Assembly (NCBI GenBank): GCA_021432655.1
Contig: MU271626.1
Span: 1 to 38,002 of the forward strand
DNA: 38,002 nucleotides
Direction: 5' to 3'
From: Atractiella rhizophila
Lineage: Eukaryota
Shown here in pieces: positions 30,560-38,002 of this stretch; position 1 is the first letter of the stretch; each line of letters starts with the position of its first letter. Position numbers and translations under genes: made by a program. Below the pieces are notes generated by a model. It made no database searches. It was not told the DNA's origin and saw nothing but the letters and a program-made list of their open reading frames with translations.

Positions 30560-31130
30560 TTCAATTTTATCGTATGAATACCTAGAGCGCCCGTAGCCTC
30601 CCGCAGAGGAACATAGGAGATGGCCTTGGTGACCCAATCCACAACCTGCAAGCTTGTATTGATATAGTGCAAGATAACCTCATTACAATTAATATGATAT
30701 GGTACCGCTGTAAAAGTGCTTTGATTGTGCTCAATGAGAACTGTTTTGAGATTTTGCAAAATTGTTGATAGAGCAGGCCTGTCAGATCCACATTGTGTAC
30801 TAGATTAAAAATACCCAACTCTTGCAAGAAACCATACAACCAAATTGCCTGTTTGGCCACAACATGAGTACTGCTGTATTTCGCCTCCTCCAATAAACAG
30901 AAATCCAAGAGATTAGTCTGTCAGCTAAAATGGCAAAAATGCCAAACTGAGGTTAAAGACTAGAAAGTAGTGTAACAAAAGATGCACCAGAGTAGAAAAT
31001 CTGTGGCTGATTAGAGTGGTCAGAGACAATGCCATAAGTGGGAGTTCCCTTCTGATAGTGTAGAATATGATCAGCAGCAAGAAAGTGAGTGGGACCAGAT
31101 GTAACTAAAAGTAGTCATGGCTTTCGTATG
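30560..31130 (-). mobile_element. Degenerate Ty1/Copia RT-RNase H remnant
   Basis: Minus-strand scraps ..GPTHFLAADHILHYQKGT.. (RT C-terminus) and EAKYSSTHVVAKQAIWLYGFLQELG (Copia RNase H 'EAEY...EAIWLRxLLxELG'), interrupted by stops and frameshifts. Confidence 0.7.
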
Positions 31131-31467
31131 AGATTTTTCAGCTGTGCAGGCCGATACATGCTGTTGCACACAGCTGTCCTTGACCTTGACCACTTTGAGA
31201 AAGGCTGATGTAATACAGATTTGCTTCCCGTTCCATCCATTATGACCCAACTCCGCACGGATATTGTCTCTTCAGCCAGCTTGGCCATTGATTAAGAGCT
31301 ATTCCTTGTTTCCTTATAATGAAGCTTCATTGTACTTGTTAAAACCTCAGTTTGCATCAGTTGTAGCTGCACTCACATGCTTCTACAGTGTAATTTTAAG
31401 CACATTTGAGAATTAGGTTCAGCTTGACATCTAACCTTTGGGGTTGACAGTAAAAGGAGGCAATGCA

Positions 31468-31812
31468 TGTTGAATTAGGTGTTATATTTCATTGTGTTGT
31501 CTTTGTGTGGTCAGCCACCTTTGCTAAAGAGCAGTGGCTAGGGATTGACAGATCAGTTGAAATTACAATTTTCTAATTTGCTACCAACTTGGTTGAAAAT
31601 TTTGACCACTCAGCCATCTGTTTGTTAGTTGTAGTGTGTTGTGTTGGTCATCTGCCTCTTATGACTCATATGAGTCATCACTATGTAGTTTAGTTTTGCC
31701 TAGGAGTGTTGGTGCTCATTATTGACCACCAACTACTCCTAGGTATGTCTCTCTATACTTCATCAATGCCTCATTATTGACCACCAACTACTCCTAGTCT
31801 TAGATCCTTACA
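31468..31812 (+). repeat. 5' LTR of a Copia element (TGTT...TACA), with an internal ~28-bp duplication
   Basis: Starts TGTTGAAT and ends CCTTACA, directly before a PBS. CTCATTATTGACCACCAACTACTCCTAG occurs twice (~31715, ~31770). The first 53 bp recur at 35373. Confidence 0.8.
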
Positions 31813-31825
31813 TGGTAGCGAGAGC
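31813..31825 (+). promoter_or_regulatory. Primer binding site (TGGTAGCGAGAGC), probably for tRNA-Met
   Basis: TGG start immediately after the LTR-terminal CA. TGGTAGC is complementary to the 3' end (GCUACCA) of fungal initiator tRNA-Met. Confidence 0.7.
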
Positions 31826-32499
31826 TCGTGGCTAGGATTACACTTTGCCACACCCATAACCTTCCTCCTCCTCCAGACCACATTTTCACCTCCCCTGCAC
31901 TTAAATTTCGCTCAATTTCAATGATCAAGACAGATCTATGATCCTCAGACATTTCTTTACCACCTTAGAAGGTGTCTGCTTACTCAGGAATCAAGAAATA
32001 TCGAAATCTATCACCTTACCACCCACCTCATGCCTCCAAACACACTTTGCCACCCTGGACTCAAACATTGACGAATTTGGACGTTATAGGGCTTATTTTG
32101 ATCGCGAAACATTGCGCTACAACTTTACTAGGAACCATCTTGGTCACAATAAGCGAAAATTTCGAGATAGCCACTCCATCACCTCCCTTACACCTCAAAA
32201 AACATATTTTTTGGACTTTTAGAAGTCAAATCTGGTCTGATCTGGACAATTTTATCACCATTGGATTCACAATAGGCTATTCTACTATCCTACAACAGAT
32301 CACCTTGATCAGAAGAGTCAAAATTTCGAAATTTGCCGCCATCACATCATTATTACATCAGCCCCTATCATACTTTCTCCATCACATCAAGGGATCTTAG
32401 CACTCAACCATAGACTCTAAGAAGATATTAGGATGGAAATGGCTCTTAATGGGTTGGAATTTGCTGGGCTGAACAGTCTTGCGGCAGCAAATGATGTCA

Positions 32500-33760
32500 C
32501 TATGCCTCAAGCAAGCCTTGAGTGGATAGCAGACACTGGTGCAACTTTCCACATGTCTCCCCATCGTCATTGGTTCAGAACCTATTAGAAGAAAGTCATT
32601 CCTATCAGGGTAGCAAGTGGAGAAGTGATTTGGAGTGCTGGAATTGGGAGCTTGATCTTTGAAGCCAAGTTGGAGGAGAAGAAGACCACCACCATTACGT
32701 CCTACATGTCCCCAAGCTCTGGAACAACCTCCTATCGGTCTTCAGACTTACCATCTACAAAGGAATGAGGGTCTCCATCAAGCACAACAAGTTTATATTC
32801 TTCCAGGGTCAAAAACTCTGCCTTACTGCCACTGTGGACTACAAGAATGGAAGCATGGCTGGAATACTTGATGGGAACACCCTTCCTGCTCCAGAATTCA
32901 CTGGAAATGCTTCTACACTGCCTATGGATGCTTCTCTGTGGCACAGAAGACTTGGACACCTGAATTATGAGGACATCAAGCGTCTGAAGAGGAAGGAATT
33001 GTGAATGGGATGATTTTGGACCTGGAGGATAATCCAGACCCTATTTGCGAGCCATGCCTAGCTGGGAAGCAGCATAGGGTCTTCAACAAGTCAGCAGAGA
33101 CCAGGGAGAAGGAAGTACTGGGTAGGATCAGCTCAGACCTGCATGGACCTCTTCCAGTCACTTCCAGAGAAGGATATCAATATTGGGTCACCTTTATTGA
33201 CAAAGCAACAAATCATTGCACAATTGCCTTCCTCAAGAAGAAATCAGAGGCCCCAGAACTCTTCAAGACCTTGAAGAATTGGGTAGAGAATGTCACTGGG
33301 AAGAAGATCAAGAAGTTTAGAGAGGACAAGGAAGGTGCTTATTCCTCTAAGGAATTCGATCAATATTTCAAGGCTTGTGGTGTCCAGCGTGAACAGACAA
33401 TCAGGAACTCTCCTCACCAGAATGGCAGGGCAGAACGAGCCAATAAGACGATTCAGGAAACTATGGTTGCCATGTTTGAAGAATCTGTACTTCCACTCTT
33501 TCTCTGGCCATCTATTGCTTCAGCGGCCGTCCACATCCGCAAGAGATCTCCCTCAGCTTCAATCAACCATGCCATTCCCCACACGAAACTCACTGGCCTT
33601 ACTCCAACCATCTCAAGATTCAGAATCATTGGATGCAATGCCTACGTTCAAGTTCAGAAGGATGAAAGACCACACAGCTTAGGATCTCATACTCGAAAAT
33701 GCGCATTTATAGGCTATTCCCTTGCAGCAAAAGGGTAAGAATTCTGGGATCCTGTTGGAG
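32500..33760 (+). pseudogene. Copia pol fragment: protease, GAG-pre-integrase and integrase (stops/frameshifts; no gag or RT attached)
   Basis: WIADTGATFHMSPHRHWF (protease); LWHRRLGHLN; CEPCLAGKQHR; SSDLHGP..YWVTFID..FREDKEG..PHQNGRAERANKTI (DDE); KCAFIGY. In-frame stops present. Confidence 0.9.
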
Positions 33761-34300
33761 AAGGTGTACGTTTGAGATGCTCTGCAAGGTCAGGAAGGTG
33801 AAGATTATGTTAGAAGAGCCACAGGGGCCACTTAATGAGTGGAAGGAGTGTCAGGATCAGGTGGGAGATGGACAGAATAATGCTCCAGCCGCTCCTCCAG
33901 CGAGGATTTCGCTATGATGCAGGTCCGCTAGTCCCGCATTAGAGGCTACAACATGAGTCATTCCAAAATTGTGACTCCCAGAGTGAACATTTCAACAATC
34001 TGTCTTACATATAGCTTATTTGGTGTATTTAGAAGAGTTGTGTGAGACAGATTTTTTATTGGTTGACTTCCAGAAAAGTTTTTATTTTCAAAGATCTTGT
34101 GATTGGGACAGGCCTTTGTACGTCTCCAGTGTACTTCGGCAAAGTTAGTTCCGATGTCGGCGTTCGGCTGCGAACGGTCGATTTCGGTTCCGGTGCTGCA
34201 TTAACGCCCCAAACACAAGTCCTCAGGCTCCAATTGTCTGCAATGTCGTCTTTTCCATTCTTTCTTTTCCATTTCCCCCTTCGCCAAATCTTTCAGCGGC

Positions 34301-35365
34301 ATGGGGAGACACTCAAAGAGCATGAAAGCCCATGACCAAAAGCTTGTCACAGCAAGGGCAGCTAAAGCTGCCAAGAGTCAGCAGCGACAAGCTCTGAAGA
34401 TACTGAGAGGATCTGTTACAGAGCCCTCGTTACTTTTCTCAGATTCTTCTGATGAAGAAAGCGAGATCCTTGCATTAGCAGATGCTCCATTGCCTGAGCC
34501 TTTTGAGATCTCTTTTTGCAGCGAGCATGAAGAGACTTTGAATTGCTTCGGAACCTTTGATGATGCAAGTTGGGCTTCATCAGAGCAAAGTTCTGACTCT
34601 GAGGGTAAATCTGCATCAGAAGAGAGTGCCAATGAGCTTGCTCCTGAAACTGCTGAAGGACAGGTACTCATTGCAGAAGCTAAAGCACAACTTCCGGGCA
34701 TTTTTGCTGAGAGTTGAATCAGAAGAAGGGAGAAAAGGCATTGGGCCGCTCTATAGGATATAACGTTGGTACGAAGGTGCCAAAGCAAACCCGTCATAAC
34801 CGTAAGAAAAAGCAAGAATTGCTGGAACAGTTTGTATTTTTATTTAACCCTCTCCTTTCTCAATCTTTTTCAGCACCGAAGCTGGTGCTGATTGCTTTTT
34901 CAGGGAAGCAATGACATGCTGCCCGCTCAAAGCCTTCCTTATCAACAACCGGCCACTTCCACCGCCTTACTCCATTCCCCATACCACTCCTGACGTCCAA
35001 GTGGCTCACAAAGACGATGGCCAGCACAGTACGGCACCTACCCTCACAACCTCACCTCCTTCTCCTCTCAATGATCCATTCAATATTCAGACGTTTTATC
35101 ATTTCATCAGCCGAGGAGAATGAAGACTCACCTGACGAGAGACGACCACAGAAACCACCTTTGGGACACTGCAACACCAACGCTGCCTCCCTTTCTAATC
35201 CCTCCCTCCCCCACACAAGAGACAACCACAGCGATATGTGCAAAGCGAAGCGTTTGAGCGGCGACAAGCACGGCTGGGGCGGTATGCAACAGGCGCGGAG
35301 ATGGCGGAGAGGTTGCTCAAGAAACAGAAGTTTGAGACTGAGCTCCAAGCACGTCGAGTTTGAGC
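34301..35365 (+). CDS. Hypothetical spliced basic/acidic low-complexity protein, possibly a transposon-derived N-terminal region or pseudogene
   Basis: ATG at 34301 (MGRHSKSMKAH...ARAAKAAK). Possible introns 34664-34713 and ~34830-34903 join it to ...GYNVGTKVPKQTRHNRKKKQELLEQEAMTCCPLKAFL. The 3' structure is unclear. Confidence 0.35.
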
Positions 35366-35372
35366 ATTGGAG

Positions 35373-35540
35373 TGTTGGATTAGGTGTTATATTTCATGGT
35401 GTTGTCTTTGTGTGGTCAGCCACCTCTGTTTTGTTTGCTTCACTTCGGAGTTTTAGCCCCCTAGGGGGCAGTTTAGGCAGTCATCATCTTTGACCACCAA
35501 TCTCTGTCCCCTGAGTAGGTACTAGATCTGTAGATCGTGC
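35373..35540 (+). repeat. LTR-like fragment related to the 31468 LTR
   Basis: 51 of the first 53 nt match 31468-31520. Also shares TTGACCACCAA and TAGATC near its 3' end. Confidence 0.7.
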
Positions 35541-36594
35541 AAGAGTGTAGATACAGAAAAAGTAGGTAAAGTACAGCGGAAAGCTGTTTGCGCGGCGCGA
35601 GCTTGAGCGGCAGCGGCATCTTGACAACTTCGGCAAGAGGCGAGTGCTTCACGTGCCGATGACAAATACTGGCATATACTCCAACAACGAAAATAAAACG
35701 CGTTCTTCTCCAGCCCTTCCGACACATTCCCCTCTCCTCCTCTCTCTCGCCGTCCTCCTTTCGACGTTACGACGCTCATTGCGCCTCACCACAGCACACG
35801 CTCTCTCGATTATCACATTCCTTTCCGACATAGTTGCCGCCCTCATTGCCTCCGCCCCTCCTTCCCACCTTCCCAATTCCCTCCAATCCTCCAACCAGCG
35901 CCTCCCGACGTCTACCGATTCTCATACGACTCGTTTATCAATCTTTAGTGGAGGAGAGCAAAGGAGTAGTCTACTCACCCATTGGAAAGGGAGATATCAT
36001 GGTGCGTGGTCTTCTTTCATCGTGTGATGGGTGTGCGTTCGATTTGGATCTATTTTCATTGGTTTCTTGATATTCATGCTGCATGGTGTCCTTCCCTTCA
36101 TGTAATTCGTCCCCTCTTCATTGTCGAAAAGGAACTTACCTATCTGGTAGGGCTCGCTGTAGACAAATGAACTTGGGGTAGTGTCATGTTTGGAGCAGCT
36201 ACTCCCTACTCAAAAGCGAACTCTTTTGAGGCTCAGCGTAGAGCAGGGAGGAGCTATTACACTCCAAGATGCAATTGCACTGAAGCCCAAGGACACTTCA
36301 TTCGCCCTCTTCTCCGCCAGTTTTTCCAGCTCCTCAAAGGTAGAAGAAACTGTAATCCGGTGAGCATGTTTGCGCTCATAAGATAAAATATCTCGCTCAT
36401 ATGTCGAGCTCTCTTCAAACTCCCACGCTGCTTGAGGATACAACTCCACTAAGTGACGTGCTCTTGCCACCCACTCAATTCTTCCCTTTCCATCCTCGCT
36501 CCAGTCCACTAGTGGAATGCTAGGTTGCTCAAGCTCATCGCGCTAAAAGAATGCATAAACAAAACATATATCAGATGTTGATTAGCATAAACAG

Positions 36595-37700
36595 TTCGCA
36601 AAGTATATTCAAAGCGTGTGAAAGTGAAAAGGGATCAAAGAAGAATAGAAAGTGGTGCTAAGAGAGTTGGAGGGGACGGGAGTGGGGGAATGTTTCGGTT
36701 CTACTCTGCTGATGGAAAACATCTGGCAACAGTTTTGAAGGGTAAAATGGAAATTGTTCATGGCCGGAAGCAAGCCAAAGCAGCTTCAAACACTGCTAAA
36801 CATGCAGTGAAGAAGTTTGTTCATCTTCAGAAGCCTCATAAGCCTCCACCAGAAAAGGGAGATGCCCGTTGGACAGCTGAAGATATTAGGAAAGCCAAGG
36901 GAAGGAATCTTCGCTATGGCTCCTACTTCCTGGGCATCTGGAACGCGTCTGTTCATGGCCATGAAGAGGCGCGTCCAACTGCAGATTCAAGGAGTAGTGC
37001 GATTGCGTAGGTCATTTCAGCAGAGGCTGATACAAGTTGAAGTTGAGAGAATTCGCTTTAGAATGAACCACACACACGACCTCTTTCAGAGCCTTACTCC
37101 TCTCTCTCAAATTGTTACCACTCTCTTTCAAGTCCTTGCACCTGCGACTTTCTGCCATCAACTTCAGCTTGTCCATCTCGCAAGAAGGCTCTATCCGATG
37201 AGTAACAGCTTTTTTCTGACGCGGAGGTCCTGCCAGCTTGTCCTAGCCATCATCGCGAATGGTTCAATGCAGCCACATTGTGACAGTAGGAACAGAGCCC
37301 ATGGACTGGATCTCATGACCCCTGTTGGCAGTTTTCGAGGAGGGAAATTGTATCTTGACTTCGGAAAAGAAGATACTTATGTGGTGGAGTACAAGCCTGG
37401 TGATATTGTTATTCTCAAAGGAGCAGTCGTCGTTCACTGGATTGGCCGATTTGAAGGGGAGCGGTATGGATTAGTCTGGTTTTCTCATGAAGAGACCCAG
37501 TCTCGTGTTTTGGACCGGTGTGTTTCTTTTCTTGTGATATTGAACTTGACCTAACTAATAATGTGCAGTTACGTCAGTTATAACAAACGCTACAGGAAGC
37601 ATCATGGCCTGCAATCTTCTGAAGAGAGTAGCGATGAAGGTCAGCATGTTTGTTCACAATTTAACTTAACTGAGTTTGGTAATCTAGAGCCTCTTTGTTA
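36595..37700 (+). CDS. TET/JBP-like 2-oxoglutarate/Fe(II) dioxygenase (spliced; 5' exons uncertain, possibly from ~36180)
   Basis: Intron 37007-37061 (GTAGGT...TTTAG) joins the 36618 and 36817 ORFs in frame. Double-stranded beta-helix (DSBH) core: N..MQPHCDSRN (HxD), GSFRGGKLYL, YKPGDIVILKG, VVHWI (distal His), GERYGLVWFSH (2OG-binding Arg). Confidence 0.8.
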
Positions 37701-38002
37701 GGGCTGACACTATGTGCGGTCGCCGATAGGCGATGCGTCTGTAGTGGAGATAAACCTAAGAGCATGATATGACATGAAGACTAACCTGTAGTGGAGATAA
37801 ACCTAAGAGAATACTCTAAGGTCACCTCCACTACTCTCTGATCTATATATACAAGCGGAATAACACTGCCACAGAGCGTAGAGGAGAGCAGATGAAACAT
37901 GTAAGAGGACTAGAAGGGGAAGTGACAGTGGGATTACGCGGAGTTAATAAGAGGAGGATAGGCACAATTGGGCTAAGTGGTGATGTAGGCGCAAATGGGC
38001 GA
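37696..38002. repeat. Probable LTR of another retroelement, running off the window end, with an internal 23-bp duplication
   Basis: Starts TGTTAGGG. TGTAGTGGAGATAAACCTAAGAG occurs twice (~37740, ~37787), the same architecture as the 31468 LTR seen in reverse. TATATATA at ~37844. Confidence 0.45.

Follow-up and report, generated by a model that had tools for sequence, protein, structure and literature searches.

What enzyme is encoded by the dioxygenase gene at the repeat-rich end of an Atractiella rhizophila scaffold, on which DNA base would it act, and did a transposon bring it there? The window analyzed here is contig MU271626.1 of assembly GCA_021432655.1 from this basidiomycete (positions 1 to 38,002, forward strand), and its 38,002 bp make up the full scaffold, of which just 301 bp follow the stop codon of the gene in question. 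The gene was predicted at 36690-37701 on the plus strand as an apparently intact, three-exon member of the TET/JBP family of Fe(II)/2-oxoglutarate (2OG) dioxygenases with 301 codons (hereafter the TET gene). The locus as a whole is probably best explained by a TET/JBP gene with a 5-methylcytosine (5mC) oxidase role and a possible transposon origin that is represented by a faulty public model. The species has a second copy, the paralogue BT69DRAFT_1292545 (P0001), and the deposited model of the window gene is BT69DRAFT_1388710 (P0002).

Structure of the TET gene

The features of the gene are given below, with active site positions aligned to the TET enzymes of Coprinopsis cinerea (CcTet), Naegleria (NgTet1), and human (hTET2).

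36594-36689, plus strand: Lys/Arg-rich in-frame stretch upstream of the first ATG, which P0002 includes in its exon 8
36690-37006, plus strand: exon 1, from the first in-frame ATG (36690) through the N-terminal strand FYSADGKHLATVLKG to GSYFLGIW
37007-37061, plus strand: predicted intron 1, 55 nt, with a GTAGGT donor, CTGAT branch site, TTTAG acceptor, and +1 frame shift, from a splice scan
37062-37517, plus strand: exon 2, helical insert and double-stranded beta-helix core with all catalytic residues
37276-37284, plus strand: HxD iron-binding motif (His-Cys-Asp), residues 178-180 of the 301-amino acid (aa) model, aligned to CcTet H326/D328
37291-37293, plus strand: Asn at the position of CcTet G331, NgTet1 D234, and hTET2 N1387, from phmmer alignments to CcTet and NgTet
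37309-37311, plus strand: Asp at the position of CcTet D337, from the alignment
37435-37437, plus strand: distal iron-binding His, from the sequence and the family column
37462-37464, plus strand: 2OG-binding Arg in GERYGLVWF, from the sequence and the family column
37518-37568, plus strand: predicted intron 2, 51 nt, running from GTGTGT through a CTAAC branch site to TGCAG, from the splice scan and also used by the deposited P0002
37569-37701, plus strand: tentative exon 3, acidic C-terminal tail with the stop codon TAG at 37699-37701

The catalytic codons CAT (His, 37276-37278), GAC (Asp, 37282-37284), CAC (His, 37435-37437), and CGG (Arg, 37462-37464) share one frame in the open reading frame (ORF) 36811-37554. 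Read from the sequence and the frame translations, they fall exactly where the first-pass annotation had placed them (H 37276, D 37282, H 37435, and R 37462), and the GSFRGGKLYL and YKPGDIVILKG segments that it reported both lie in the catalytic frame. The GSYFLGIW motif and Lys/Arg-rich stretch (KVYSKRVKVKRDQRR) described as preceding this core are likewise present, but they belong to a different frame (ORF 36591-37010) and the Lys/Arg part lies before the first in-frame ATG. Coding capacity of the Lys/Arg-rich stretch at 36594-36689 is predicted solely if an upstream exon joins at the AG at 36592-36593.

Several results connect exon 1 with the catalytic core. The exon 1 ORF (36591-37007) by itself matched the family profile (E 1.6e-12, profile positions 87-186), tblastn of P0001 displayed 80% identity across 36747-37004, and removal of intron 1 gave a gap-free profile alignment over the exon 1/2 junction. 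The P0001 protein is also unbroken at the intron 1 point, and intron 1 has the same position in both genes. Joined together, the three exons make up 906 nt in a single open frame of 301 codons plus the stop. A family profile built from 22 relatives, with the Atractiella sequences left out, aligned to residues 4-260 of the 301-aa model as one continuous domain (186.7 bits, E 8e-59). In a six-frame scan of the window (1203 ORFs of at least 20 aa), profile matches were confined to the two exon-bearing ORFs (E 1.6e-12 and 3.7e-38), so that the window holds one TET copy.

Assignment to the TET/JBP family

The TET/JBP identity proposed in the first-pass annotation was borne out by sequence, profile, and fold, in each of which CcTet led and NgTet followed, and by a match to Pfam Tet_JBP (PF12851; E 8.5e-8, 32.0 bits against a cutoff of 34.9) that was scored on the ORF 36811-37554 and covers exon 2 only. 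Searches of the PDB by sequence identified CcTet at E 7e-5 and NgTet at E 5e-3 to 8e-3, with nothing else below E 0.5. Searches by family profile gave CcTet at E 8.8e-15 and NgTet at E 7e-13, followed among natural enzymes by a TauD-like protein (E 0.17); 9r1o, which is a designed coiled coil, appeared at 0.0064, none of its matched stretches passing alone. The AlphaFold model of exon 2 (pLDDT 93.9) was placed closest to CcTet by Foldseek (query-normalized TM-score, TMq, 0.72-0.74) and then to NgTET1 (0.66), with PHD2, AlkB, and PiuC at 0.50 or lower, i.e., among solved structures those of TETs are a closer fit to the beta-helix core than those of other 2OG oxygenases. A fold search with the full-length P0001 model (pLDDT 84.1) gave TET-family chains (CcTet, NgTET1, hTET2, and CMD1) for all 21 of the 21 matches shown down to rank 26. 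The best matches were not AlkB, P4H, or small-molecule dioxygenases, the outcome named beforehand as speaking against the identification; AlkB, PHD2, and PiuC ranked far lower.

The HxD...H triad and 2OG-binding Arg occupy columns that are kept in 39-41 of the 41 rows of the family alignment (HxD His 40/41, HxD Asp 41/41, distal His 39/41, and Arg 39/41), and every invariant or near-invariant family residue of exon 2 is retained. The match of the predicted protein to the family is far beyond chance, and its TET/JBP identity is well supported by sequence and modeled fold.

A sequence search of 1.84 billion representatives identified 149 proteins at E ≤ 1e-3. Tet_JBP was found in 34 of the 50 relatives scanned from this set, two of which also matched 2OG-FeII_Oxy_3 more weakly, and eight of the remaining 16 matched unrelated families (repeat proteins, pseudouridine synthase, and a methyltransferase). 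The Tet_JBP cutoff was passed by 16 of 19 profile relatives scanned. The profile search for relatives returned 12 proteins, including two from A. rhizophila and one from Pseudogymnoascus destructans, while close-relative protein searches returned P0001 and P0002 only and two metagenome scans, with exon 2 and the relative P0039 as queries, returned no relatives. Four distant matches (P0044, P0054, P0108, and P0131; E 9e-7 to 6e-4) displayed PseudoU_synth_1 N-terminal to a TET-like C-terminal region, a possible domain combination.

Comparison with characterized TET enzymes placed CcTet (PDB 7VPN, 7W5P, and 8JKK) as the best match of the window protein by sequence, profile, and fold. The HxD, distal His, and GERY Arg of the two proteins align without gaps and the Asp at the D337 position is common to both, although they share only about 20-25% identity, the CcTet chain is 415-430 aa compared to about 301 aa, and CcTet comes from the Agaricomycetes as opposed to the Pucciniomycotina. 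CcTet is also related to AG-type dioxygenases of the TET/JBP family borne by Kyakuja elements, whereas no Kyakuja transposase was found near the window gene. NgTet1 (PDB 4LT5/5CG8), a Tet-like dioxygenase, has the same fold (TMq 0.66 for exon 2) and, as does hTET2, the same iron and 2OG ligands, yet its sequence E-values against the window protein were just 5e-3 to 8e-3. Metazoan TETs carry a Cys-rich or CXXC region, and the window protein has no such region.

Active site and predicted substrate

By homology with the family, His178, Asp180, and His231 of the 301-aa model would hold Fe(II) and Arg240 would hold 2OG. A flipped-out 5mC in duplex DNA would be placed by Asn183, the equivalent of hTET2 N1387 and NgTet1 D234, and would then be oxidized to 5-hydroxymethylcytosine and probably onward to 5-formylcytosine and 5-carboxylcytosine. 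Residue assignments come from alignments in which identity is 20-25% and the gap-free neighborhood of the HxD motif serves as the anchor.

The substrate prediction is based on the position three residues after the HxD Asp. It corresponds to Asn1387 in hTET2, Asp234 in NgTet1, and Asp350 in CMD1; its side chain forms a hydrogen bond with N4 of 5mC, and the N6-methyl group of N6-methyladenine (6mA) collides with it (PMC11040006). Demethylation of 6mA is allowed by the Gly found here in CcTet, or by an N1387G change in hTET2 (PMC11040006). Across the 41 family rows the residue is Asp in 35, Asn in three, and Glu, Gly, and Cys in one each, and the window protein has a polar residue, Asn, at this 5mC N4-contact position, like hTET2 and in place of the Asp of NgTet1. 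Because Asn stands at the position of CcTet G331 and hTET2 N1387, oxidation of 5mC is predicted and demethylation of 6mA, whose accommodation is not expected in such a pocket, is considered less likely.

A different substrate or product, i.e., 6mA demethylation as in CcTet, thymine hydroxylation as in JBP, or addition of another group as in CMD1, is quite improbable. Such an activity would be in line with the Asp at the CcTet D337 position, a residue that few family members have there (3/41 rows: the window protein, P0001, and P0038), with CcTet being the best structural match, and with the statement of Kojima 2025 that divergent fungal types might have other activities (PMC12730594). It is opposed by the G331 position, which for want of a side chain leaves room for 6mA in CcTet and is occupied in the window protein by Asn as in hTET2, where the N1387G change creates 6mA activity (PMC11040006). 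AG-type enzymes are described as combining an Asp at the D337 position with either Gly or Ser at the G331 position (PMC12730594); the window protein has the Asp, but with Asn at the G331 position it lacks the features of a CcTet-like bifunctional 5mC/6mA enzyme. The pairing of Asn with Asp occurs in two of the 41 family rows, both from Atractiella. A CcTet-style "Asp switch" conferring 6mA activity was considered and dropped, as Asn at the G331-equivalent position does the 5mC job in hTET2 (PMC11040006).

The deposited gene model

The deposited P0002 (575 aa, annotated as "partial") comprises ten exons at 34301-37655 on the plus strand, which map to the window at 100% identity save for boundary residues split by introns. 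It begins in the ORF at 34301, crosses a long terminal repeat (LTR) fragment at 35373, and takes 37007-37291 as an intron, with the result that the HxD motif is lost. Its match to the family profile came in two pieces, reached 112.3 bits, and lacked profile positions 189-265, and the paralogue P0001 is unbroken across the segment that P0002 omits. Judged from the sequence, the public model is a chimera that joins unrelated upstream ORFs to the TET gene. P0002 as a real fusion protein was rejected, since it crosses the LTR fragment, 77 profile positions are gone, and its upstream exons are unsupported: they had no Pfam match and displayed low protein-likeness in the ESM Atlas.

The 34301 ORF, which the first-pass annotation mentioned in connection with a possible carrier of another type, is merely the first exon of the chimera; it matched no family and its protein-likeness is low. 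Just upstream of the TET gene, the minus strand has an open frame of 110 aa (36213-36542) that overlaps two P0002 exons; it had no Pfam or Atlas match, and the ESM Atlas returned nothing for either this frame or the 34301 ORF.

The paralogue P0001

P0001 lies on a separate 190,656-bp contig. Its identity to the window gene is 88% in exon 2 and 80% in exon 1, and the two are annotated with different starts and C-termini. In P0001 a His replaces the 2OG-binding Arg (GEHY compared to GERY), the kind of change expected from a CpG transition, and to judge by this replacement the paralogue may be catalytically dead.

Host genes, copia remnants, and CpG depletion

The first 30,700 bp of the window form a host-gene block that includes SDE2, an RNA cytidine acetyltransferase of the NAT10/TmcA type, Rot1, a WD40 protein, a formin GBD, RPL5, and a Ski2-type helicase. 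Beyond position 30,700 or so, the DNA is repeat-derived up to the scaffold end, placing the TET gene at the edge of the host-gene block. The repeat-derived part contains the following features.

31468-31812, plus strand: putative copia 5' LTR (TGTTG...TTACA), read from the sequence, the first 56 nt of which recur at 35373
32663-33738, plus strand: decayed copia gag-pre-integrase and integrase fragments (Pfam gag_pre-integrs 3.7e-8, rve 9.6e-8, and SH3_retrovirus 7.6e-11)
35373-35428, plus strand: second copy of the LTR start, 56 nt at 95%, from a repeat search, 1.26 kb before the TET ATG and with no further extension by blastn
37702-38002, no strand assigned: scaffold tail, 301 bp, with two 27-nt direct repeats and no LTR match

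The end of the LTR at 31468-31812 and the primer-binding-like sequence that follows it (TGGTAGCG) are what we take them to be by comparison with an assumed consensus. No reverse transcriptase follows the copia integrase fragments, and the integrase remnant stops within 33900-34130. The boundary claimed at 34127 received support as a junction of differently aged sequences, with the observed/expected (o/e) CpG ratio changing from 0.15-0.45 (32501-34000) to 0.50-0.69 (34001-35000). The claim of LTR-like flanks on both sides of the TET gene stood for the upstream side, where the 56-nt LTR-start repeat (35373-35428) was identified, and failed downstream, where the 301 bp match nothing else in the window. 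The 27-nt direct repeats downstream of the TET stop codon (37739-37765 and 37786-37812) are 96% identical and 47 nt apart. A search for tRNAs was negative.

These flanks bear on whether the TET gene was carried between the LTRs of a copia-like element, which is very improbable indeed. In its favor, the LTR-start repeat 1.26 kb upstream is on the same strand as the TET gene. The gene, however, is not enclosed by matched LTRs: it is situated downstream of both LTR-start copies and so outside the pair of repeats at 31468-35428, and no LTR match is present on its downstream side. Carriage by a retroelement is further argued against because the two predicted introns are in the sense strand and would be lost through RNA, and the 2025 survey came upon no retrotransposon that encodes TET/JBP (PMC12730594).

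The CpG o/e ratio was 0.86 in the host part (1-30,700), 0.29 in the copia remnant (31468-34000), and 0.57 in the TET gene (36690-37701), the last value being lower than that of any of 295 equally long host windows (median 0.86, minimum 0.63). The ratio of TCG+CGA to TTG+CAA followed the same order, with 0.82 in the host part, 0.20 in the copia remnant, and 0.42 in the TET gene. Hypermutation of TCG in repeats has been described for Pucciniomycotina (PMC12730594); the TCG ratio fits this process and implies that the TET gene has been mildly exposed to cytosine methylation. From the CpG and TCG depletion it follows that cytosine methylation operates in this DNA, and the substrate mark of the predicted enzyme, 5mC, would very likely be present around the TET gene because the copia remnants bear the methylation-linked depletion signature.

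Within the repeat-derived part, depletion begins right after the Ski2-like gene, with CpG o/e of 0.22-0.29 and TCG+CGA/TTG+CAA of 0.07-0.20 across 30701-34000. A CpG-rich island with o/e 1.07 and 52% GC is found at 35501-36000, past the second LTR-start fragment and ahead of the TET gene, in otherwise depleted surroundings.

Transposon cargo or host gene

The TET/JBP genes described in Pucciniomycotina are transposon-borne (Kojima 2025, PMC12730594). They resemble the window gene in subphylum, in being of the HxD type, and in residing in repeat-rich DNA with the TCG-hypermutation signature, and differ in that no carrier element was identified for the window gene; Atractiellomycetes are unmentioned in the main text and one supplement file of the same study (PMC12730594). 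Origin of the TET gene as the cargo of a DNA transposon is plausible, if a little short of an even chance, and is neither shown nor refuted. In its favor, the gene sits in a transposable element (TE) zone, displays mild TE-like CpG depletion, and has a diverged paralogue. Three readings of the origin, namely transposon cargo, a gene resident in the host, and a decaying relic, overlap in part.

A number of results weigh against the overall interpretation of the locus, and several of them concern its transposon component. The 82 ORFs at 30.7-38 kb that reach 45 aa or more matched no transposase family (E ≤ 0.05), no inverted repeats of at least 40 nt occur in the window, no target site duplication for a carrier element was seen at the locus, and each A. 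rhizophila TET copy is a singleton at 90% clustering and occurs on one contig. With regard to the enzyme, the Pfam Tet_JBP score of 32.0 bits falls below the curated gathering cutoff of 34.9 and that of P0001 is 24.6, and transfer of function to the window protein is indirect because the nearest relatives outside the species are about 35% identical. With regard to the gene model, its 5' and 3' ends are unsettled, the latter because the exon 3 DNA is read in different frames by P0001 and P0002. Finally, the CpG depletion of the gene and the loss of the Arg in P0001 would also fit a family that is on its way to decay.

The absence of KDZ or Plavaka transposases from the window, as stated in the first-pass annotation, extended to all transposase families in the ORFs scanned. 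Across the whole window, the scan covered 43 of the 50 that measure 120 aa or more; the remaining seven overlap larger ORFs. Within the scaffold, the transposase or Rep-helicase that marks TET-carrying DNA transposons (KDZ, Plavaka, hAT, Harbinger, IS3EU, EnSpm, ESTA, as well as Helitron) was accordingly not found. Inverted pairs at 33900-38002 were of 14-19 nt only; one end of an element could lie off the scaffold. As the scaffold stops 301 bp after the TET stop codon, there could also be a partner gene shortly past its end.

The same results can be read as those of a host-resident, low-copy cellular TET/JBP gene, possibly long domesticated, that borders a TE-rich, assembly-breaking region and acts on methylated DNA across the genome while serving no particular transposon. 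This possibility is less likely than transposon cargo and is held as a minority view. It is consistent with just two annotated copies, 88% identical and in singleton clusters, with predicted spliceosomal introns, with the lack of any transposase or terminal repeats among the features found, and with ordinary host genes within 6 kb. It is opposed by a CpG o/e of 0.57 that lies below every one of the 295 host windows and by the location of the gene inside a copia-remnant zone at the scaffold end. Repeat masking ahead of annotation could also conceal more copies. The description of TET/JBP genes as transposon-borne in Pucciniomycotina likewise counts against residence in the host (PMC12730594).

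Alternatively, the ORF could still be open while the gene has lost its expression or function, having been left behind by a dead TET-carrying element under methylation-linked mutation. Such a relic would agree with the intermediate CpG and TCG depletion of the TET gene, the His in place of the 2OG-binding Arg in P0001, the decay of neighboring elements, and a start or upstream exon that cannot be fixed. We regard it as unlikely, however, as all 301 codons are open, the invariant and near-invariant residues of exon 2 are all retained, the protein scores 186.7 bits as a single domain, and its structure is predicted confidently.

More speculatively, the Atractiella pair might represent a TET/JBP lineage of the Atractiellomycetes outside the described TET-carrying transposon lineages, either as a domesticated 5mC oxidase at the borders of methylated repeats or as the cargo of an undescribed type of carrier, with an unusual pocket that combines an hTET2-like Asn and a CcTet-like Asp; the chance of this is considered small. 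The preferred interpretation remains a TET/JBP gene predicted to oxidize 5mC, with the DNA-transposon cargo origin held at the strength given above.

Implications

The link between TET/JBP genes and transposons in fungi was reportedly described by Iyer in 2014. As this link is now established (Kojima 2025, PMC12730594), the locus adds a member and no principle. An apparently intact TET/JBP gene is nevertheless placed in the Atractiellomycetes, and no paper naming both Atractiell* and JBP was found within the literature collection searched. With a public model that splices out the HxD motif and fuses upstream ORFs to the remainder, automated surveys would miss or misjudge the gene. With its Asn-plus-Asp pocket, the protein is a naturally occurring variant on which the published rules of 5mC versus 6mA specificity could be tested.

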